The notes under the pieces: generated by a model
Told to the model about the DNA's origin: nothing
The model's input: only the letters and a program-made list of their open reading frames with translations
The model's database searches: none
Made by a program: the position numbers and the translations under genes
From: Pseudomonadota bacterium
GTDB lineage: Bacteria; Desulfobacterota; Anaeroferrophillalia; Anaeroferrophillales; Tharpellaceae
Reading direction: 5' to 3'
Assembly (NCBI GenBank): GCA_034659215.1
Contig: JAYEGS010000244.1
Span: 12,659 to 76,658 of the forward strand
DNA: 64,000 nt
In this document: positions 5,627-19,457 of the stretch, in pieces
Position numbering within the stretch: the first letter of the stretch is position 1
How the letters are laid out: each line of letters begins with the position of its first letter

Positions 5627-6169
5627 ATGGCTTTTGTTAACAAGCAGGAGTTTGGTCTGACTTTCGGGGAAACCGATAGCCTGGTCAGCGAAATTGTTGA
5701 GCTCCTCAAAAAACATCATGTTTTCGACGAGGGCTATCCTGGTCGAGATCTGGTCGAGGCGGAGAAGGTAAAACTCTCTTTTCGCAAGAAGGAAGATGTT
5801 TCCAAAGTAAAACTCCAACTTCAATTCCCGGAAAAGTTCGAGTATAATCCGAAAAGTGAAAGGGAATTACTTGAAAATCCCAAACTTAAATACAGTAAGT
5901 TAAAAAAAATGATGAAAAAATCCTATGCCGAACTCTGCCGGGCAGTTCAGGATGATATTTTGCCGCCGGCAGATCTGGTTGGAAACTTCATTAATCAATC
6001 GGCAAAAATGGTGACCTACGGCGGCCGTGGTGATGAGCACTACGACCGATATTCCGACGCCTGTTTCAATTTCAAGCAGGCCTATGATGATGGCGACCAG
6101 GAAAAAATGAAGGCAGCTCTGGCACGGGTGCAGAAGATAAAAAAAGAGTGCCATGAGCACTACAAATAG
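5627..6169 (+). CDS. GAK-cluster small protein, possible XXXCH-domain protein
   Basis: RBS AAGGAGG 7 nt upstream. The C-terminus ends ...KKECHEHYK. It is the first gene of a co-directional cluster with ATP-grasp, HprK-like kinase, amphi-Trp and CofD-like genes. The domain assignment comes from memory of the TIGRFAM description. Confidence 0.4.
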   Translation: MAFVNKQEFGLTFGETDSLVSEIVELLKKHHVFDEGYPGRDLVEAEKVKLSFRKKEDVSKVKLQLQFPEKFEYNPKSERELLENPKLKYSKLKKMMKKSYAELCRAVQDDILPPADLVGNFINQSAKMVTYGGRGDEHYDRYSDACFNFKQAYDDGDQEKMKAALARVQKIKKECHEHYK

Positions 6170-9329: not shown

Positions 9330-10645
9330 CAGTGTTGTCCGGTTAGGAATTTGCATGTAAAAAATATAGAAGAAAATTGAAAATAATGTCATTTTTTACT
9401 TGACATTCGAGCAATAGTGCGCGCGCGATTTTACCTGTAATATCAACTACTTACAGGGGGAATTGTAAATGCCGCGCACTTTGTCACCAAAAAAATTTGG
9501 TCGATTACCATCGTTTAAATCAGTCCTCTTTCCGCTTACTGGAGCATCTTGTGGCGTTCCAGAATTAATATCTGGAAGTAATAGAGATTTGAAAATGACA
9601 TTTGAAGATCAACTTAAAGTTATGGTCTACTTCCATTTGAAAGATTTTAAGTCTGGTTGCCACCTGCTACAAGATCTACAGGAAGATGACTTTGCAAAAG
9701 AGTTTATAGCCCCCAATGGTGGAATCGGTAAAAGTACATTTTTTGATTCGCTAAACGAACGTGGCCTCGAACAATTCTTACACGTTTTTCAAAATCTGTT
9801 TAAACAAGCGAGTAATCAGATACCTAAAGAATTTTCTGAACTGGGAGATCTGGTTGCCATTGATGGTTCCCTGATCGATTCGGTTCTCTCCATGGTCTGG
9901 GCCGACTATCGCAAAGGGTCAAAAAAAGCAAAAGTCCATTTTGGGTTTAACGTTAATTGCTCTATTCCACAAAAGGTTTTTTTAACCGATGGCAATGGAG
10001 CCGAACGGCCTTTCGTTCAAAAAATTGTGGAACCAGGTCAAACAGGCATAATGGATAGGGGTTATCAAAGTCACGACCTGTTTGATCAATGGCAAGAAAA
10101 TGACGTCCATTTTGTCTGCAGAATCAAAGGCAATACTCAAAAAACTTGTATTAAAGAGCTTCCTTTTGAAACCGGGGGCGACATCTTCTATGATGCAGTG
10201 GTTCGCCTGGGTCAACCTGGCGTAAATGAGACTAAAAAGGATCTACGCCTGGTTGGTTATAAAATTGGCGACAAAAAATATTGGGTTGCGACCGACAGGT
10301 TTGATCTAACGGCTGAGCAGGTCGCCTTAATCTACAAACTGCGTTGGAACGTGGAATCTTTTTTTGCCTGGTGGAAACGCCATATGCGAGTATATCATTT
10401 AATTTCAAGAAGTAAGCATGGGTTAATGGTTCAAATATTATCAGGTCTTATCACATACCTGTTGCTCGCCATTTATTGTAACAATGAATTTGGCGAAAAA
10501 GTTAACATTAAGAGAGTGCGTGAATTACAAATAAAAATAGCCAATGAGATTCGCCAGCTGGATCAGGAACCTCCAGATTTTGATCCGGTGGAAGAAAACT
10601 GGACAGAACCATTATTGCAAGCAAATCTCTAACCGGACACCACTG
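9330..10645 (+). mobile_element. IS4-family insertion sequence (1316 bp), intact
   Basis: Left inverted repeat CAGTGTTGTCCGGTTA at 9330..9345. The right one at 10630..10645 reads CAGTGGTGTCCGGTTA as reverse complement, a 15/16 match. It is flanked by the 9-bp direct repeat and holds a single DDE transposase ORF. Confidence 0.8.
9469..10632 (+). CDS. IS4-family DDE transposase
   Basis: DDE residues lie in VAIDGSLID, IMDRGYQS and YKLRWNVESFFAWWKRH (the Y-x2-R-x3-E-x6-K IS4 signature). The stop codon overlaps the right inverted repeat. Confidence 0.85.
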   Translation: MPRTLSPKKFGRLPSFKSVLFPLTGASCGVPELISGSNRDLKMTFEDQLKVMVYFHLKDFKSGCHLLQDLQEDDFAKEFIAPNGGIGKSTFFDSLNERGLEQFLHVFQNLFKQASNQIPKEFSELGDLVAIDGSLIDSVLSMVWADYRKGSKKAKVHFGFNVNCSIPQKVFLTDGNGAERPFVQKIVEPGQTGIMDRGYQSHDLFDQWQENDVHFVCRIKGNTQKTCIKELPFETGGDIFYDAVVRLGQPGVNETKKDLRLVGYKIGDKKYWVATDRFDLTAEQVALIYKLRWNVESFFAWWKRHMRVYHLISRSKHGLMVQILSGLITYLLLAIYCNNEFGEKVNIKRVRELQIKIANEIRQLDQEPPDFDPVEENWTEPLLQANL

Positions 10646-10654: not shown

Positions 10655-10682
10655 CTTACTCAACCTATTGAGGAATCAATAT

Positions 10683-11576
10683 ATGAAAATTGGAGTAGTA
10701 GGAACTGCCGGCGGCTGGTCATCTGAACTTCTCGCCGATAGAGTCGCTGAAAAGACCGGCTCCCGTCTCCTGATCGAGATGGACAGAACCCGGCTCGATC
10801 TGCCGGCCGGAAAACTCTGGTTCAACGATGTTGACCTGACAACTCTCGATGCCCTGCTGATAAAAAAAATCGGGCAGCGTTACTCGCCTGATCTCCTGGA
10901 TCGCCTCGAAATGCTGCGGATCTTGTCTAAAAAAGATGTTTTAATCTGTTCCGACCCGCTTAAAATCCTGCGCGTTCTGGATCGTTTAAGCTGCACTGTA
11001 ACCCTGCAGGAGAACGAAATACCGATGCCGGAAACTTCGATCACGGAAAATGTTGAACTTGCCGCCGCCATAATCCGGGATTATGGCGAAGCCGTACTGA
11101 AACCCCTCTACTCAACCAAGGCAAGAGGCATGACGATAGTAAGCGACGGCCCAGACCTTATTAAAGTGCTGGAAAATTACAAAAAAGAGAATACGATTAT
11201 CTATATTCAGAAAAAGATCGACCTGGGCGAGTTTGACCTGGGGCTGGTTTTTCTGGGCGGCAAATATCTGACCACCTATGCCCGCTGCCGCCAGGATAAA
11301 ACGGCATGGAACACAACCACAGCGGCCGGCGGTAAATACGCCGCCATTGATCCCGAACCGGAAGTTATTGAGCTTGCCCGCCAGGCTCAGGCACCCTTCG
11401 GACTCGATTTCACCTGTGTCGATGTTGCTCTGACAGATGCGGGGCCGGTAGTTTTTGAAGTTTCTGCTTTTGGTGGTTTTCGCGGCATCCTTGAAGCTCG
11501 AGGTCTGGATGCTGCTGCTCTTTTAACTGACTATGTAATTGAAAAAGTGGACAACCATAATGACACAAACAGCTAA
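10683..11576 (+). CDS. ATP-grasp enzyme (RimK/GshB-like), GAK-system type
   Basis: ATP-grasp fold motifs (LKPLYSTKARGM, IYIQKKIDLGEFDLGLVFLGGKY, ...FEVSAFGGF). Preferred start is the ATG at 10683 with GAGGA 8 nt upstream. The ORF-track TTG is at 10668. Confidence 0.7.
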   Translation: MKIGVVGTAGGWSSELLADRVAEKTGSRLLIEMDRTRLDLPAGKLWFNDVDLTTLDALLIKKIGQRYSPDLLDRLEMLRILSKKDVLICSDPLKILRVLDRLSCTVTLQENEIPMPETSITENVELAAAIIRDYGEAVLKPLYSTKARGMTIVSDGPDLIKVLENYKKENTIIYIQKKIDLGEFDLGLVFLGGKYLTTYARCRQDKTAWNTTTAAGGKYAAIDPEPEVIELARQAQAPFGLDFTCVDVALTDAGPVVFEVSAFGGFRGILEARGLDAAALLTDYVIEKVDNHNDTNS

Positions 11577-12651
11577 AAGTCTGAATCAACTGGCAGAAGA
11601 GTTTTTAAGTGGCGTTAGTCTTACGCAAACGCTATCTTTAAAATTTGAAGATTATCTCATCGGCATCCAGAGCAACTCTCACTCTTTGATTGAAAATTTG
11701 CGGCACTATTTCGCAGACTTTGTGGTTGAGGGTAGTGCGCCTGCACTTCTGGTGACAGCTATCGAGATGGAGCAACCTAAGTTTGACCTCCACTTTGAGA
11801 TCAAGGTTCCGGACCCCGGAAAAACTAAAATCAAGGAAGAATTTGTTAATATCGAAGGCGGCAGGATAGTCAGGAAACGCTTGACCGGCATGAGCTTTCT
11901 CTTCGGTGGCTCTATAAACCTGGCGCTTGGTCCATGCCGGGCAAACTCAAACCAGGTAATAAACTTTATCAACAACCGGTTTATCTCCTACAAACTTAAT
12001 CAGGGCTGCCTCCTCGGTCATGCTGCCGCTGTAACTGCAAACGGCAGAGGTCTGGCGCTGGCAGGATTTTCCGGGATGGGAAAATCAACCCTGGCCCTGC
12101 ACCTGATGAGTCGCGGCGTGAAATTTGTCAGTAACGACCGGCTCCTGGTTGACGCTGAGAGAAAAGATGAATTGAAAATGTACGGGGTTGCCAAGCTGCC
12201 GCGGATTAATCCGGGAACCGCTCTCAACAACCCCGACCTCGTCAAAGTTCTACCGGTCGATGACTACAAACGTTTCTCTCTGATTGAACAGGATGAGCTC
12301 TGGCAGGTCGAGCATAAATACGATGTTTTCATCGACGACTGCTTCGGCCCCGATCGTTTTCAGATTAAAGCTCAAATGAGCGCTCTGGTAATCCTTAACT
12401 GGCAACATAACGCTCCTGAAACCTTAATCAAACAAGCTGATCTCTCCCGACGACTGCAGATCCTGCCGGCTTTCATGAAGACCGCCGGCCTCTTTTATCT
12501 CGATGAGAGCAACCGAAACGAAGAGATGGAGAGGGTTGATTTTTACCAGGAACAACTCTCCTTATGCCCGATATATGAATTGAGTGGTAAAATTGATTTC
12601 AGCAAGGCGGCTGATTTGTGCATCTCATTATTAGAAGAGACGGAGCTATAG
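11539..12651 (+). CDS. HprK-related P-loop kinase
   Basis: LAGFSGMGKSTLALHLMSRGVKFVSNDRLLVD matches the HPr kinase/phosphorylase C-terminal P-loop pattern G-x-SG-x-GKS...DD. It overlaps the ATP-grasp gene end, consistent with translational coupling. Confidence 0.65.
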   Translation: MKKWTTIMTQTAKSLNQLAEEFLSGVSLTQTLSLKFEDYLIGIQSNSHSLIENLRHYFADFVVEGSAPALLVTAIEMEQPKFDLHFEIKVPDPGKTKIKEEFVNIEGGRIVRKRLTGMSFLFGGSINLALGPCRANSNQVINFINNRFISYKLNQGCLLGHAAAVTANGRGLALAGFSGMGKSTLALHLMSRGVKFVSNDRLLVDAERKDELKMYGVAKLPRINPGTALNNPDLVKVLPVDDYKRFSLIEQDELWQVEHKYDVFIDDCFGPDRFQIKAQMSALVILNWQHNAPETLIKQADLSRRLQILPAFMKTAGLFYLDESNRNEEMERVDFYQEQLSLCPIYELSGKIDFSKAADLCISLLEETEL

Positions 12652-12652
12652 T

Positions 12653-12910
12653 ATGTCTGAAAAAAAAGTGGACTTTACAACAAAGGGTGAAAACCAGGAG
12701 GTGGTTAACTATCTCTCCTCTCTGATTCAGGGTTTTGAAAAAAAGCGTCTTATCCTGACTCATGCCGATGATGAAGTTGTCCTCTACCCCGATGACGAAA
12801 TCACTTTCAAAGTCAAAGCCCGTCTCAAAAAAGGTGAAGCCCGGGTGGAACTGAAACTCTCCTGGAAACAGGAGGCAGAATCTGGTAAAGAGATCTTAAT
12901 CAGCAATTGA
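12653..12910 (+). CDS. amphi-Trp-like small protein, paralog 2
   Basis: 85 aa, paralogous to 7362..7628. Starts 2 nt after the kinase stop. Confidence 0.5.
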   Translation: MSEKKVDFTTKGENQEVVNYLSSLIQGFEKKRLILTHADDEVVLYPDDEITFKVKARLKKGEARVELKLSWKQEAESGKEILISN

Positions 12911-12981: not shown

Positions 12982-14208
12982 TTGAGAATGAAACACAAAC
13001 AGTCCGAACCTAACACAAAGATTCTTATCAACCGGGAATTTTCGATTCCCGACCCGGAAAAACTGGAACTCTACCGCTCCAACCCTTCTCTTGGCCCGCG
13101 AATTCTTTTTTTCAGCGGGGGCTCGGCAATCCGCCAGCTCAGCACCAGGCTTATCAACTACACCTGGAACTCAATCCATTTAATAACCCCTTTTGACTCA
13201 GGAGGCAGTTCTGCCGTTTTAAGAGAGGCTTTTCGCATGCCGGCAATCGGCGACATTCGCAATCGTCTTATGGCCCTGGCGGACCAGTCAGTACTCGGCA
13301 ACCCTGAAATTTTCCGGCTCTTTGCCTACCGTTTACCAACTGCCGCTTTAGAAGATGATCTTCTAAATGAGTTTACCAGCATTCTCGAAGGCCGGCATGA
13401 GTTGGTTGCTGCCGTCTCATCACCGATGCGTAAGATCATCAGGCATCATCTTAAACTTTTCTCTGAACTAAAGCCGGAAAAGTTCAATCTCGCCGGTGCC
13501 AACATCGGCAACCTGGTCCTGACAGCCGGCTACCTTGAGAACCGCCGTCATCTTGACCCAACCATTTATATTTATTCGAAATTAGCCGAAGTGCGGGGAG
13601 TTGTCAGACCGGTTGTCAGCGTAGACTGTCACCTCGGCGCTGAACTTAACAATGGAGCAAGGATTATCGGTCAGCACCTTATCACCCGACAGAACAGAGC
13701 TAAAGCAAAGCAGCGAATAGAGAAAATATTTTTACTTGAGGCTGGAAATCCGGTTTCAGACATCAGTGATGAAATCTCTATACGTCCCAAAGTTGCTGAA
13801 CTGATCAATAAAGCGTCCATTATCTGCTACCCGATGGGAAGCTTTTTCACCAGTCTGATTGCCAGCCTGCTGCCTTCGGGGATTGGTTCGGCGCTAGCGC
13901 GAAGCCGAGCGCCGAAAATATACATTCCCAATACGGGAGATGATCCGGAAAGCTTTGGTTTAGACTTGATGGATCAGATCGATACCCTTTTAAACTATCT
14001 GAAGAGAAACAATTCCACCCTAGATGATAAACAACTGCTTAATTTCGTTTTACTTGACAGCAACGAAAAAAATTATACCGGCAAGCTCAATCCGGCAGAT
14101 CTTGAAGAGCGCGGCATCAGAATCATCCGCCGCAATTTAATCTCTGCCGCAAGCAAGCCATTGATCGATGCCGACCTTCTAACTGAAACCCTCCTCTCCC
14201 TCAACTGA
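12982..14208 (+). CDS. CofD-like / UPF0052 (YvcK-like) family protein
   Basis: ILFFSGGSAIRQL...ITPFDSGGSSAVLRE...IGDIRNRL matches the CofD/YvcK N-terminal signature. Confidence 0.7.
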   Translation: MRMKHKQSEPNTKILINREFSIPDPEKLELYRSNPSLGPRILFFSGGSAIRQLSTRLINYTWNSIHLITPFDSGGSSAVLREAFRMPAIGDIRNRLMALADQSVLGNPEIFRLFAYRLPTAALEDDLLNEFTSILEGRHELVAAVSSPMRKIIRHHLKLFSELKPEKFNLAGANIGNLVLTAGYLENRRHLDPTIYIYSKLAEVRGVVRPVVSVDCHLGAELNNGARIIGQHLITRQNRAKAKQRIEKIFLLEAGNPVSDISDEISIRPKVAELINKASIICYPMGSFFTSLIASLLPSGIGSALARSRAPKIYIPNTGDDPESFGLDLMDQIDTLLNYLKRNNSTLDDKQLLNFVLLDSNEKNYTGKLNPADLEERGIRIIRRNLISAASKPLIDADLLTETLLSLN

Positions 14209-14372
14209 CAATGGCCGGACAAAAGTTAACTAAATTCTTCTGCTACCATCTTGAAGATAATTTGATCGGCATTTTTCATCAAGCTCTCCCTCTCACCGAA
14301 TCAACCGAATCCGCTTTTTCTAAAGCAAACAGAGCCTGTTTGGGGCCAGCAACCCCTTTCTGTGCAGCCTCA

Positions 14373-14750
14373 TTAACGCTCTTGGTCCGTATGGTGCGCT
14401 GCATAACTGATTGCGCAATTTCCCCCGCACCACAGAACGTGCCATCTCCAGGGTAAAGAGCTCATCTTTAACCGATTTGAACTGTTTTTGCCGTAAAAAA
14501 CATTTTTCCCGGAGGCAAAGGCAAATTTACCGTTAAACTTTCCGTTTCGATGGAGAAAAACCGTATCGATCTGGTGCCGCATCAAAAGGTTAATCGCGGC
14601 ACTGGTAATCTCGATACGACCGACAATCACCAACTGCTCGGTCTTAAAGGGAAAGATCGACTTTAAAAGATCATCCCCTTTGCGCAGTTGCAGAACATCG
14701 CCCCTTTTTACCAGGCGCCCGTAATCAGAAACCACATAAATGATCGACAC
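14373..14750 (-). pseudogene. cas1: cas1 N-terminal remnant (truncated, ~90 aa Cas1-like then out of frame)
   Basis: MSIIYVVSDYGRLVKRGDVLQL...TEQLVIVGRIEITSAAINLLMRHQIDTVFLHRNGKFNGKFAF matches the Cas1 N-terminal beta-sandwich pattern (v-x-i-x-G-x-v-x-iT-x2-A-x2-L-x4-IP-v-x-Fl-x3-G-x-y-x-G). The ORF stops after 125 aa, whereas Cas1 is about 300 aa. No CRISPR array nearby. Confidence 0.5.
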
Positions 14751-15083
14751 ATTTTCACCTCAGCCAAAAAGGACAATACCAATACCTGCAAAAAAGTTAT
14801 CATGTCCAACCGATAGTGAAGCTTCATCATCAAGCAACAAGAGAATAGAGACTATCAGTTCATCCCGACTTTGGTCATCAACAATGAAAACCCCAAGAAC
14901 ACTGCATAGCTCTCTGAGTTCACCGTTTGACATCACTTCAAGCTGCTGCCGCCAATTCATGATTTCCATCTCCTCCTTCGCATCTACAACCAACCATTTT
15001 CTTCAGAAGGCTTTTTCCATCACAAGGGGAAAGAAGCAACGATTATTGAAGCCAGAAGGTCTCAATCCTTTTTTTCAGGTAAC

Positions 15084-15653
15084 TTGCTTGAACTCAAGGC
15101 ACAAATAGAAGCTGGGAGGAGCGAACTCACAAAATCGGCGCAAAGAAAAATTGAGAAGTACTTGGTTTGCTCGAAAAAAGGACGGGGCGGGCAGTTGAAA
15201 ATAGGCTTTGATGACAAGGCTATAGCCAAAGCAAAGAAGTACTTCGGCTATTTTGTGCTCGTCAGTAACCAGACCATGGACACGTTTGTCGCGCTAGAAA
15301 ACTATCGATTGCGAGAAAAAATAGAAGAACTGTTTGCTGTACAAAAGGGAGGGCTTGACGGTGCACGGCCACGCACATGGTATCCCGACAACCTGCGAGG
15401 AAGACAATTTGTGCAGTTTGTATCACTGGGCTACCATTGTTTCCTGACGAAGAAAATAAAAGAAGTACGGGCTAGACTTGGAAGGAATGAAAACGGAAAG
15501 ACTAAGGCTCTCATCAAACTCGAAAAGAAACTGGATCAATGGATTGAGCAACGCTCTCTTGCCCAAATTCTAGACTGGTTCGACTGTATTGAAACAACCA
15601 CCGTGCAGACTGCTATGGGCAACTATCGAATCGATGGTCTACCGAATCAGTAG
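15084..15653 (+). pseudogene. IS4/IS1634-superfamily transposase C-terminal fragment
   Basis: KKYFGYFVLVSNQTMD...YRLREKIEELFAVQK....ARPRTWY is the C-terminal E-containing block (Y-x2-R-x2-IE-x2-F) of IS1634-like transposases. The N-terminal DD region is absent. Confidence 0.5.
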
Positions 15654-15719
15654 CCAGAGATCGGTTGTTTTTAGAATATTTGGGGATGACAAATAAATAG
15701 TGTACGCTTTATCCGACTT

Positions 15720-16322
15720 TCAGGGGAGTCTCGACTTAAAAAGCTTTTCGGCCTTGTCACGGTCCTGAAAGAGGGGCCGTTTTTTGATCTTTTTCTTGGC
15801 TCGTGGAGAGCCCATTATTTTTTCGGAAATTGTATTAAAGTCGGATTGCAGATAGATGACGCGTCCGATGTCGTTTAAATTATCTACTCCAATAAAACCA
15901 CCACCCGTGGAAATGACTGTATTTTTTACGGAATGTGCCAGCCAGTCAGCAACTTTTTGTTCAAGGTTGCGGAAATAAGCTTCCCCTTTCTCTTTGAATA
16001 TATTTCTAATTGTTCTGTTTTCCAAGCTTTCAATCAGATCATCTGTGTCAATGGCAAAGTAATCTGTTTGTCTAGCCAATTCTCTGGCCAATTTGCCCTT
16101 GCCGACACCCATAAAGCCGATTAGGAGAATATTGTTCGATTTAATCTGGACAGAATCTTTTTTTCGGTCTATGCTGGTGGTACCGGGAACAATCTTTTGG
16201 GTTTGATCCCGGCTGGCTGCTACCGGGCATTTGCGACAAAATTTTCCCTTTTTTTTAAATTTACGGCAACATTTTTTCTTTATTTTTTTCTTTTCCATGC
16301 GACGATTTCCTTTGGGAAGCAA
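15720..16322 (-). CDS. aroK: shikimate kinase with Lys/Cys-rich N-terminal extension
   Basis: ILLIGFMGVGKGKLARELA...FAIDTD...ISTGGG are shikimate kinase Walker A and LID motifs. The N-terminal 40 aa (KKKIKKKCCRKFKKKGKFCRKCP) are unusual. Confidence 0.7.
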   Translation of the reverse strand: MLPKGNRRMEKKKIKKKCCRKFKKKGKFCRKCPVAASRDQTQKIVPGTTSIDRKKDSVQIKSNNILLIGFMGVGKGKLARELARQTDYFAIDTDDLIESLENRTIRNIFKEKGEAYFRNLEQKVADWLAHSVKNTVISTGGGFIGVDNLNDIGRVIYLQSDFNTISEKIMGSPRAKKKIKKRPLFQDRDKAEKLFKSRLP

Positions 16323-16459: not shown

Positions 16460-17266
16460 ATGCAGATATTCGTCAATGAACATAGTTGTCAAGTTGAGGC
16501 GGAAACCCGGCTGTATGAGCTCCGAGATCGTCAGAAGCCGAATGCTGACCTGTTGATTGTCAACGGTTATCCGGTTAGTGAGGATCAACAACTTAAAGGT
16601 GGCGACCGGGTGGTGCTGATTCGGCGTGGTAAACAGCCGACGAGCGCTGATCTTGAAGCCCTGATGAGGGCTCGTCATACACCGGGCGTGCATGAGAAAA
16701 TTAAAAATAGTTGCGTCGGGATCGCCGGCGTTGGTGGGTTAGGTTCCAGTATCGCAATAGCCTTGGTTCGGGTCGGGGTCGGCAAGCTGGTGGTTGCTGA
16801 TTTCGACCTGGTCGAGCCTTCCAACCTGAATCGGCAGCACTATTTTATCGATCAGATTGGGTTGCCGAAAGTGCTGGCCTTGCAGGAAAGTTTACAGCGG
16901 ATCAATCCCGGCGTGCAAGTTGAAACAATTCAAGAGAGAATTACTCCGAAAAATCTGCTCATCCATTTTTCCACAGTTGATGTGATGGTTGAAGCCTTTG
17001 ATGCAGCCGATCAAAAAACGATGCTGATCAGCCACTTTTTGCGTGATTGTCCGCAAATACCGTTAGTCGCAGCCTCGGGGATGGCCGGCTATGCTCCCTC
17101 TAACAGTATCACAACGCGCAAGGCGGCTAACAATCTCTACCTTTGTGGTGATGGTATCACCGCAGTACTGCCGGGGCAAGGTTTGATGGCACCCCGGGTC
17201 GGAATTGCGGCGCACCATCAGGCCAATGCGGTCTTAAGGTTACTGCTTGGCGAAGAGCCGGAATAA
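16460..17266 (+). CDS. thiF: ThiS-like ubiquitin-fold domain fused to ThiF/MoeB-type E1-like adenylyltransferase
   Basis: N-terminus MQIFVNEHSCQVE...GGDRVVLIRRG is a ThiS/MoaD-like beta-grasp. After it comes the ThiF nucleotide-binding motif GIAGVGGLGS...DFDLVEPSNLNRQ. Confidence 0.7.
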   Translation: MQIFVNEHSCQVEAETRLYELRDRQKPNADLLIVNGYPVSEDQQLKGGDRVVLIRRGKQPTSADLEALMRARHTPGVHEKIKNSCVGIAGVGGLGSSIAIALVRVGVGKLVVADFDLVEPSNLNRQHYFIDQIGLPKVLALQESLQRINPGVQVETIQERITPKNLLIHFSTVDVMVEAFDAADQKTMLISHFLRDCPQIPLVAASGMAGYAPSNSITTRKAANNLYLCGDGITAVLPGQGLMAPRVGIAAHHQANAVLRLLLGEEPE

Positions 17267-17280
17267 GGAATTAAAAATTT

Positions 17281-17481
17281 ATGGATTTATGTGTCAACGG
17301 TCAGAATAGAGAATTTCCCCAACCGCTCAATGTCGAGCAGTTGCTTGAACATCTGGAGCTGAAGCCGGAGCGGATTGTGGTTGAACTGAACCGGGAGATC
17401 TTGACTATCGACAGACATGCCGACATTCAGCTCCAGGATGGCGACACGCTGGAGCTGATCCAGTTTGTTGGCGGTGGTTAG
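17281..17481 (+). CDS. thiS: sulfur carrier protein ThiS
   Basis: 66 aa ending in GG, with a MoaD/ThiS-like sequence. Sits just upstream of thiG. Confidence 0.7.
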   Translation: MDLCVNGQNREFPQPLNVEQLLEHLELKPERIVVELNREILTIDRHADIQLQDGDTLELIQFVGGG

Positions 17482-17559
17482 CAACTTATTCTTGAACTTC
17501 TGCCAAAAAAACCGCAAAGTACACACTAACTTTAGTTTCTTAAATGGGATATTATTATC

Positions 17560-18333
17560 ATGGATAAATTAATAATCGCAGGACGTTCCTTCAACTCACG
17601 GTTGCTGGTCGGTACGGGCAAATTTGCCTCGAACCAGGCGATGGTCGCGGCCATGGAGAACTCCGGTTCTGAAATCGTTACGGTGGCTCTACGCCGGGTT
17701 GATATTGACAATCCTGCGGATTCGCTGCTCTCCCATATCGACCGAAACCGTTATCTGTTATTGCCGAATACCAGTGGGGCCCGCGATGCTGAAGAGGCGG
17801 TACGCTTGGCCCGGCTGGCTCGGGCGGCGGGCTGTGAACCCTGGATCAAGTTGGAAGTTACACCCGATCCTTACTACCTGCTCCCGGATCCGATTGAAAC
17901 CCTGAAAGCGGCGGAAATCATGGTTAAAGACGGTTTTATCGTGCTTCCCTACATGCCGGCGGATCCGGTTTTGGCCAAACATCTGGAAGAGGCTGGAGTC
18001 GCAACTTTGATGCCGCTTGGAGCGCCGATCGGCACCAATCGGGGGGTTCGCACTCGCGATCTCATTGCGATTATTATTGAGCAGGCGACGGTGCCGGTGG
18101 TTGTTGATGCCGGTCTCGGGGCACCCTCCCACGCAGCCGAAGCGATGGAGATGGGGGCGGATGCGGTTTTAGTAAATACCGCACTTGCTGATACTCCCGA
18201 TCCTGCGGCTATGGCCCGGGCTTTTTGCAAAGGGGTTGAAGCCGGACGTGAAGCCTATCTTGCCGGGCTCGGGCCGCAGCGCCAAAAAGCGGAAGCCTCC
18301 AGCCCTTTGACCGGTTTTTTAAGGAATAACTGA
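17560..18333 (+). CDS. thiG: thiazole synthase
   Basis: [22 protein letters not shown]...[13 protein letters not shown]... is a typical ThiG TIM-barrel sequence. Confidence 0.85.
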
Positions 18334-19457
18334 TGAATTTTTTGTCACAATTGCAACAATATCCACAAAGCCAATTGCGCGAGCAAATTCTCTCCACAAC
18401 CGCATCGCAAATTGACCAGGCCTTGCGGCGGCAACGTTTAAGTCTGGAGGATTTTGCCTGTCTGCTTTCACCGCAGGTCAACGATGATCAGCTTGAGCAG
18501 ATGGCAAATCTGGCGCATCGGATTACGAGCCAACGTTTTGGCCGGATTATCCAACTTTATGCACCACTTTATCTCTCTAACGAATGTTGCAACGGCTGTA
18601 AGTATTGCGGTTTTAACGCCGACAATGATCTACCCCGCAAAACCTTATCGCTAGATGAGATTGAAAAAGATGCGAAAGTCCTACGCAAACAGGGCTTTCG
18701 TCACCTTCTGCTCTTGACCGGAGAGGCGCCGAAAGTGGCCGGAGTTGACTTTCTGGAAGCAGCCGTTAAGCGGATTAAACCGCTTTGCGGATCAATTTCG
18801 ATCGAAGTTTTTCCCATGGATAGGGACGGCTACACGCGGATGGTGGCGGCCGGGGTCGATGGTTTGACCGTCTATCAGGAAACCTACGATGCCGAGCTTT
18901 ATCGTGAACTGCATCCCTATGGGCCGAAAAGCAATTACAACTTTCGTCTTCAGGCACCGGAAGCGGCAGGAGAAGCCGGATTGCGGCGGATTGGTGTCGG
19001 TGCGCTGCTCGGGTTGGGAGATTGTCTGGCCGATGTGTTTTACACTGGTTTGCATGCTCTCTATCTGGCCCGACGTTTCTGGCGCACCCAAGTTACGATC
19101 TCTTTTCCCCGGTTGCGTCCGGCGGAAGGAGGTTTTCAGCCGCGCAGTCTGGTTTCCGACCGGCAACTGACCCAATTTATTTGTGCTCTGCGGCTCCTGA
19201 TTCATGATGCCGGGCTGATTCTTTCAACCCGCGAAAGTGCTGCGTTACGTGATAACCTGCTGCCGCTGGGAATCACTCAGATGAGCGCCGGTTCCTGCAC
19301 CGCCCCCGGCGGTTATAGTGACGATAGTAATGAAGGCGAACAATTTTCGATCAGCGATCACCGAAGCCCGGCCGAGCTGGCCGAACTTCTCGCGGCTCGC
19401 GGCTATGAAGCGGTCTGGAAGGATTGGGATAACGCCTTCCTCGAACAAGCTTCTTAA
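18333..19457 (+). CDS. thiH: 2-iminoacetate synthase (radical SAM)
   Basis: CNGCKYCGF radical-SAM cysteine motif and ThiH-like length. Overlaps the thiG stop. Confidence 0.8.
   Translation: MNFLSQLQQYPQSQLREQILSTTASQIDQALRRQRLSLEDFACLLSPQVNDDQLEQMANLAHRITSQRFGRIIQLYAPLYLSNECCNGCKYCGFNADNDLPRKTLSLDEIEKDAKVLRKQGFRHLLLLTGEAPKVAGVDFLEAAVKRIKPLCGSISIEVFPMDRDGYTRMVAAGVDGLTVYQETYDAELYRELHPYGPKSNYNFRLQAPEAAGEAGLRRIGVGALLGLGDCLADVFYTGLHALYLARRFWRTQVTISFPRLRPAEGGFQPRSLVSDRQLTQFICALRLLIHDAGLILSTRESAALRDNLLPLGITQMSAGSCTAPGGYSDDSNEGEQFSISDHRSPAELAELLAARGYEAVWKDWDNAFLEQAS

Follow-up and report, generated by a model that had tools for sequence, protein, structure and literature searches.

The region from 14226 to 15653 of the analysed DNA, a stretch of 64,000 nucleotides that is called the window here, very probably represents a type III-associated CRISPR-Cas locus of which only a non-functional remnant is left. 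It contains pieces of a CRISPR array, of cas1 and of cad1 that have kept the order and orientation seen in intact relatives, which supports the interpretation as the scar of a lost CRISPR-Cas locus. The scar has at least four recognizable lesions, namely two large deletions, the loss of 1 nt and a deletion of 7 nt. An earlier note on this DNA had proposed a CRISPR-Cas locus that had decayed through IS-mediated recombination. The decayed locus was borne out by the array, cas1 and cad1 remnants and by intact relatives with the same repeat, whereas the IS-mediated recombination, as it had been stated, was not. The following features make up the scar:

14226-14297, minus strand: putative tail of cad1 (CARF-adenosine deaminase), last 23 codons and stop codon TAA at 14228-14226
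14294-14750, minus strand: cas1 pseudogene, codons 1 to about 155 of about 356 (Pfam, blastn, tblastn, alignments)
14751-14986, minus strand: non-coding stretch of 236 nt between the array remnant and cas1
14987-15021, minus strand: degenerate cas1-proximal CRISPR repeat, 26/35 identical to the consensus
15022-15058, minus strand: single surviving spacer of 37 nt between the two repeat remnants
15059-15078, minus strand: truncated CRISPR repeat, the first 20 of the 35 nt of the reverse-complemented repeat GTCTCAATCCTTTTTTTCAG/AAGGCTTTTCTCATC, cut at 15078/15079
15079-15653, plus strand: 3' fragment of an IS1634-family transposase gene, about residues 300-483 (NF033559)

On the left, the scar is flanked by a GAK cluster, which is interrupted by an intact IS4-family transposase gene. 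The right flank consists of a shikimate-kinase-like gene followed by thiF-thiS-(thiG-like)-thiH. The genes annotated on the left are:

5627-6169: XXXCH-domain protein (GAK cluster, left flank)
9469-10632: intact IS4-family transposase gene, interrupting the GAK cluster
10668-11576: ATP-grasp enzyme (GAK cluster)
11539-12651: HprK-related kinase B (GAK cluster)
12653-12910: amphi-Trp protein (GAK cluster)
12982-14208: CofD-like protein (GAK cluster), convergent with the scar (TIGR04357, E 2e-147)

As a whole, the feature is a case of ordinary pseudogene decay, and the families are already known. With degenerate or orphan CRISPR-Cas loci it shares a residual array with a degenerate terminal repeat, broken cas genes and mobile-element debris. 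It does not differ from them in kind, and its particular feature is the fusion junction between cas1 and cad1, which has a counterpart with other breakpoints in one relative. The scar is of little importance in itself. It is a well-resolved case of CRISPR-Cas dismantling by illegitimate deletions that end in a repeat, an IS, cas1 and cad1, together with small frameshifts.

Remnants of cas1, cad1 and the CRISPR array

Profile searches confirmed the Cas1 N-terminal domain that had been recognized in the ORF 14373..14750 (minus strand), the first 86 codons of which match Cas1 profiles. Residues 5-86 aligned with positions 2-83 of the 283 positions of the Pfam profile Cas_Cas1 (PF01867, E 6.3e-12, 45.7 bits, cutoff 22.3 bits), and the cas1 model TIGR00287 was matched with E 1.1e-11 and 44.5 bits, compared with a full-length cutoff of 71.7. 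The drift out of frame was likewise verified by profile search and tblastn. The second frame encodes the next 31 Cas1 residues (LRQKQFKSVKDELFTLEMARSVVRGKLRNQL, PF01867 profile positions 83-113, E 8.5e-4), and the third frame carries on with MQRTIRTKSVNEAAQKGVAGPKQALFALEKADSVDSVRG. When the Cas1 protein of the intact locus L093 was used as tblastn query (loci of relatives are denoted by L numbers), the three frames were matched by residues 1-85 with 95%, by residues 84-117 with 82% and by residues 117-157 with 54% identity. A DNA alignment with five relatives placed the two small lesions, the loss of 1 nt (a -1 frameshift) in the A-run at 14495-14500 (plus strand) and the 7-nt deletion at 14404/14405. 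The intact cas1 gene of L012 was 81.5% identical to window positions 14771-14294 (blastn), and the reconstructed window Cas1 was 86% identical to the intact L012 Cas1 of 356 aa.

The cas1 remnant spans the beta-sandwich domain at the N-terminus and reaches into the helical domain. In the protein alignment, homology stops at the 'RG' of the conserved RGxEG motif, at about residue 155-157 of 358. The rest is deleted, and a complete C-terminal alpha-helical catalytic domain in one frame is absent. The 125-aa ORF 14373..14750 therefore codes only for the non-catalytic N-terminal domain and an out-of-frame tail. The absence of cas2 from the window, also claimed before, was upheld by tblastn searches with both cas2 genes of L093, neither of which had a match. 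The window thus shares with the Cas1 proteins of PF01867/TIGR00287, in a clade found beside type III loci, the N-terminal domain, the first helices and the adjoining remnant of an array with the same repeat, but it has only about 155 of about 356 codons in three frames and lacks the catalytic domain and cas2.

The translation of 14297..14226, GERESLMKNADQIIFKMVAEEFS followed by the stop codon, matches the C-terminus of the adenosine-deaminase ORF of L001, DEREVLMKSADNTIFKLVAREFS and stop, an ORF that contains the Pfam domain A_deaminase (E 1.8e-8). An alternative assignment of 14226-14297 as the continuation of cas1 in the RGxEG region was dropped, because the L001 adenosine-deaminase ORF has the same C-terminal peptide and stop. 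Residues 721-741 of the L093 Cad1 were 71% identical to the window tail (tblastn, E 1e-3), and a comparison with L010 gave 81% identity over 53 nt (blastn against a small database, E 2.6e-8). The assignment of 14226-14297 to the cad1 tail is credible, judged from 23 codons and mainly from their position, their orientation, the shared stop and the parallel in L001. The cad1 homology ends at the natural stop codon, 17 nt from the stop (14208) of the convergent CofD-like gene of the GAK cluster.

The CARF and catalytic domains of Cad1 are absent from the window, and the full architecture was seen in L093 and L013. Relative to L093, a deletion of about 3.4 kb joins cas1 codon ~155 to cad1 codon ~720 and has taken almost the whole of cad1, the two cas2 genes and the catalytic half of cas1. 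Its junction maps within about 14288-14297, in a short purine-rich stretch that is similar in both genes, and there is no IS at this junction. Cad1 is a type III CRISPR effector that is activated by cyclic oligoadenylate and converts ATP to ITP (Baca et al. 2024, PMC11645235). The full-length relatives of the window tail share the CARF and adenosine deaminase domains with Cad1 (PDB 9c67, 9ebt, 8z3k), whereas the window retains only the last 23 codons and the stop.

CRISPR repeats had been reported to be missing, but two remnants are present on the 5' side of cas1, at 14987-15021 and at 15059-15078. The latter is an exact match to 20/20 nt of the repeat and the sole one in the window, with 0.03 expected by chance. 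The former is identical to the consensus at 26/35 positions, compared with a maximum of 23/35 in 2000 shuffles of the region. Its half from 15003 to 15021 is identical at 17/19 positions, and its identity with the repeats of L012 and L093 is 84-87% over 31 nt (blastn). The two repeat starts are 72 nt apart, within the period of 70-78 nt of the intact array in L012. Only 1.6 array units, one of them degenerate, are left at this spacing, and the remnants are read as CRISPR repeats because relatives have arrays in which the same repeat occurs 17-21 times. No other repeat copies were found in the 64 kb, and TRF and direct-repeat scans revealed no other array in the window. The best candidate for a further decayed repeat in 14751-14986 had 16/35 identities, equal to the shuffled background. 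The 37-nt spacer matched neither the rest of the window nor the fetched loci, and it had no exact match in viral contigs.

The first part of the 236-nt stretch between cas1 and the array remnant, 14751-14867, shows homology to the sequence that precedes the cas1 stub of L001 (window 14512-14867 is 82% identical to L001, blastn), and only this part of the stretch is common to L001. A 77-aa ORF, 14760..14993 (minus strand), was considered as a real gene or as the end of an upstream cas gene and was rejected. It had no homologue but itself among 5.8 billion proteins, no Pfam or NCBIfam match, and no tblastn match with Card1 or the proteins of L004, L092 and L094. The ORF is probably spurious and should be dropped from the annotation, in which the label of pseudogene fragment is appropriate for both the 125-aa 'Cas1' and the 189-aa 'transposase'. 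The contig should not be counted as coding for CRISPR adaptation.

No further cas remnants were found elsewhere in the 64 kb by tblastn, and searches with the proteins of L004, L092 and L094 revealed no remnant of cas10 or of a RAMP gene (csm/cmr) in the window. Rfam searches yielded no family above threshold anywhere in the window.

Intact and broken loci in relatives

When the 143 N-terminal residues of the reconstructed window Cas1 were used as query in a protein search, all matches were short or broken Cas1 proteins. A metagenome scan, for which an alignment of the broken Cas1 proteins was used, and a genome scan with the repeat then revealed intact loci. Intact cas operons and arrays, which the earlier note had suggested looking for, are thus present in L012, L013 and L093. 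In L012, 21 identical repeats of 35 nt (GATGAGAAAAGCCTTCTGAAAAAAAGGATTGAGAC, period 70-78 nt) are followed after 64 nt by an intact cas1 gene of 356 aa and by two tandem cas2 genes (91 aa and 93 aa). L013 and L093 have the order array-cas1-cas2-cas2-cad1, with cad1 genes of 726 aa and 741 aa, respectively. The arrays of the same repeat in L012 and L093 comprise 17-21 copies, and at the contig ends of L094, which is Candidatus Tharpella aukensis, the runs are shorter. Arrays with this repeat thus occur in Candidatus Tharpella. Including two broken loci, L007 and L008, cas2 is present in L007, L008, L012, L013 and L093.

The full-length Cad1 relatives contain a CARF domain (Cas_NE0113, PF09623, E 4e-8) and an A_deaminase domain (PF00962, E 5e-31). 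Their best PDB matches were the Cad1 structures 9ebt, 9c67 and 8z3k with E values of 1e-37 to 1e-39, compared with about 1e-14 for the solved structures of ordinary adenosine deaminases. A PDB search with the CARF ORF of L007 gave only spurious sums from repeat proteins and, for the first 21 residues of CARF-ADA proteins, a weak match with E 0.018. The loci link Cad1-type effectors to a cas1-cas2-cas2 adaptation module in uncultured MAGs that are labelled Proteobacteria, Deltaproteobacteria or Desulfuromonadales.

In L094 and L092, arrays of the same repeat adjoin genes for RAMP proteins, Card1 (CARF and nuclease) and Cas_NE0113/Csm6-like proteins. The more distant L004 (67% identical) contains a csm (type III-A) locus with the order cas6-cas10-csm2-5-...-card1-cas1. 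From the intact loci L012, L013 and L093 and the type III genes beside the same repeat, we therefore infer an ancestral order (in cas1 sense) of type III effector and ancillary genes, array with the 35-nt repeat, cas1, cas2, cas2 and cad1. The assignment of the window locus to type III is one by association in relatives.

The broken loci have lost different parts of the module. Residues 1-80 of cas1 are left in L001 and residues 1-130 in L009. In L007, residues 1-147 are followed by cas2, and in L008, two cas2 genes come after a fusion of residues 1-65 to residues 281-358. The cas1 gene of L006 has two internal deletions and has lost its N-terminus, and a Phd/ParE toxin-antitoxin pair is located ahead of cas2. 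L001 resembles the window most closely in the kind of deletion, as its cas1 codon ~80 is fused to about the last 115 codons of cad1, and one solitary repeat is present. The endpoints of this fusion differ from those in the window, and thus, the two cas1-to-cad1 deletions were independent and the decay of the module is recurrent. The cas1-cas2-cas2-cad1 module is often broken in these MAGs.

Taking the near relatives with at least 77% Cas1 identity, different internal deletions were found in 6 of 8 loci (the window, L001, L006, L007, L008 and L009), and truncation also affects the Cad1 fragments of L010 and L011. Broken loci number about 3-5 of about 72 in the wider clade (at most 69% identity). 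The comparison of 6/8 with a few percent mixes search methods and may reflect ascertainment. We consider it rather unlikely that the module of this clade is unusually prone to deletion or actively selected against. If this were true, a fitness cost of the adaptation/Cad1 module, for example toxicity of the ATP-to-ITP conversion or autoimmunity, would drive its repeated loss. A second reading would be that the N-terminal Cas1 stub has been kept for a separate function, which is taken up below.

Deletion endpoints and the IS1634-family fragment

The C-terminal third of an IS1634 transposase that had been described at 15084..15653 was found as such. The ORF 15084..15653 (plus strand) matched positions 305-455 of the 483 positions of the NCBIfam model NF033559 (IS1634-family transposase, E 5.8e-27), with a score of 94.9 bits compared with a cutoff of 100, and a full-length DDE transposase is absent. 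It also matched an annotated IS1634 family transposase on plasmid NZ_CP043858.1 (tblastn). The TTG at 15084 is a start of the ORF finder only. The 5' two thirds of the transposase gene are gone. The C-terminal 190 residues thus agree with the transposase model of the IS1634 family (IS4 superfamily), but the left end of the element and the first two thirds of the transposase are missing from the window, and the fragment is not a functional IS. The right end of the element should be located in 15654-15719, and the searches yielded no closely related full-length copy.

The transposase gene is cut at about residue 300 of 483, and the cut directly abuts nucleotide 20 of the CRISPR repeat (15078/15079). 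The simplest reading of the scar is a series of illegitimate deletions and small indels, in which the IS was a passive deletion endpoint. An IS1634-family element would first have inserted within the array or somewhere beyond it. Everything between an endpoint in the IS (15079) and one in the repeat (15078) would then have been lost in a later deletion, namely the remaining array, any sequence beyond it and two thirds of the IS at its 5' end. The amount that was removed at this junction, and whether it included type III effector genes that once adjoined the array, can be suggested from the relatives only. The other large deletion, of about 3.4 kb, joins cas1 codon ~155 to cad1 codon ~720, and cas1 also carries the 1-nt homopolymer loss and the 7-nt deletion.

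The alternative favoured earlier was an active removal of the CRISPR-Cas locus by the IS, either by transposase-driven adjacent deletion or by recombination between two IS1634 copies. The IS1634-family fragment does directly abut the array remnant, and IS activity in the region is real, as the intact IS4-family transposase gene at 9469..10632 is 4.5 kb away. However, after adjacent deletion by a transposase or recombination of two IS copies, the junction would contain a terminus of the IS or the entire element. The junction 15078/15079 is instead located inside the transposase gene, and this truncation of the IS within its own transposase gene argues for a passive endpoint. In addition, the cas1-to-cad1 deletion occurred without any IS, and no second copy of this IS1634-family element was found in the window or in the fetched loci. 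Removal by the IS is thus an unlikely explanation, and at these two junctions, illegitimate deletion is the preferred one.

Alternative explanations of the cas1 stub

Another possibility is that the 125-aa ORF with the Cas1 N-terminal domain is a retained functional mini-protein and not debris. Several observations are in its favour. The start codon and an upstream GAGG motif, similar to a Shine-Dalgarno sequence, have been kept. Among five differently broken copies, dN/dS of codons 2-79 was 0.02-0.04 at a dS of 0.5-0.9. The value for the window copy compared with relatives was 0.03-0.04, and no relaxed constraint is visible in the stub. Downstream of the window frameshift, dN/dS was 0.15-0.33, compared with about 0.06 among in-frame relatives. 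However, this downstream excess is only about 1.7-fold over the intrinsic difference of the region, and the counts are small. The broken copies also keep different parts of the protein, as L006 has no N-terminus and L008 has residues 1-65 joined to a C-terminal tail. Moreover, intact full-length genes exist in the same clade (L012 and L093), and thus, the low dN/dS can be explained by recent, independent inactivation. We attribute it to this, although it would also fit a retained function. The argument that the stub must be functional when all close relatives are broken was weakened by the intact loci from the DNA-level scans. Overall, a functional mini-protein is very improbable, and the stub is best regarded as part of a decayed cas1 gene, with no function of the locus to be expected.

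The frameshifts and junctions might also be assembly or sequencing artefacts, since the source appears to be a MAG and one of the frameshifts is located in a homopolymer run. This is hardly credible. Two independent Logan assemblies from different runs, SRR26901930 and SRR26901924, reproduced window positions 13927-15522 and 14125-15111, respectively, with 100% identity across all junctions, and therefore, the lesions are not artefacts of a single assembly. Furthermore, deletions of 7 nt and 3.4 kb are atypical of read errors.

An origin of the stub from a Cas1-carrying mobile element (casposon), which had been offered as a second possibility for an orphan cas1 fragment without cas2 beside transposase debris, can be rejected with near certainty: the cas1 genes most closely related to the stub are located between a CRISPR array and two cas2 genes, the window has kept remnants of the same array and of cad1, and in place of Cas1 and a family-B DNA polymerase within terminal inverted repeats, the annotated ORFs nearby include no family-B polymerase, no significant inverted repeats bracket the region, and the flanks contain GAK-system, shikimate-kinase-like and thiamine biosynthesis genes. 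The earlier note also took the scar as the boundary of an accessory island with the GAK cluster, which it may be; neither an exact-protein look-up nor a scan of genome contigs with the CofD-like gene found syntenic relatives of these flanks. Downstream of cad1, each of the examined relatives has different genes, as is expected for a mobile defence locus.

Deletions and insertions in the cas1-cas2-cas2-cad1 module of relatives

Among the near relatives of the module (L001 and L006–L011), most copies were broken: 6 of the 8 cas1 loci with at least 77% identity were broken by different internal deletions. In contrast, only about 3–5 of about 72 cas1 loci were broken in the wider clade, a difference to which ascertainment bias possibly contributes. 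The CARF-adenosine deaminase gene, cad1, was truncated in two of the relatives' loci. In L010, a CARF N-terminus is fused with the last 206 residues of the deaminase; in L011, cad1 is present as a 110-aa fragment. Another broken locus, L006, contains an insertion between the cas1 remnant and the cas2 start:

L006 1360–1891: Phd/YefM-ParE toxin-antitoxin pair

The final 32 nt of the L006 contig are identical to the cas2 start of L008.

In the intact loci, two tandem cas2 genes, both of which match PF09827, are placed between cas1 and cad1:

L012 2655–3214: tandem cas2 genes
L013 3027–3583: tandem cas2 genes
L093 3497–4056: tandem cas2 genes

The two genes, which encode 91 aa and 93–95 aa, respectively, are clearly different from each other.

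A CRISPR repeat shared across phylum labels

The 35-nt repeat that belongs to this module was found in identical form in L092 (MAG091, JAYEMC010000090.1) and in L094 (Candidatus Tharpella aukensis). The MAGs sharing this repeat bear different phylum labels, i.e., Pseudomonadota/'Deltaproteobacteria' versus Candidatus Tharpellota, and therefore, its occurrence suggests that either the CRISPR-Cas module has spread horizontally or the MAG taxonomy is inconsistent.

Flanks of the scar

The following gene is located on the right flank:

15720–16322, minus strand: shikimate-kinase-like ORF (PF01202, E 3e-25)

This ORF likewise has a hit to NF040667, which models homoserine kinase of the Desulfo type. 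In its listed form, the ORF carries about 60 additional N-terminal residues that are rich in Lys and Cys; this extension may simply be due to an upstream alternative start codon. Upstream of the thiF-thiS-thiH genes (16460–19457), no TPP riboswitch was detected with Rfam, and the whole window (1–64000) contained neither Rfam families above the gathering score nor tRNA genes.

On the left flank, the GAK-system cluster includes an apparently intact transposase gene:

9469–10632, plus strand: gene for a 387-aa transposase of the IS4 family (NF033592, E 4e-59)

It is neighbored by a PhoU/APH-like gene of 556 aa and the GAK ATP-grasp gene, and thus, a second IS family is present less than 5 kb from the scar.
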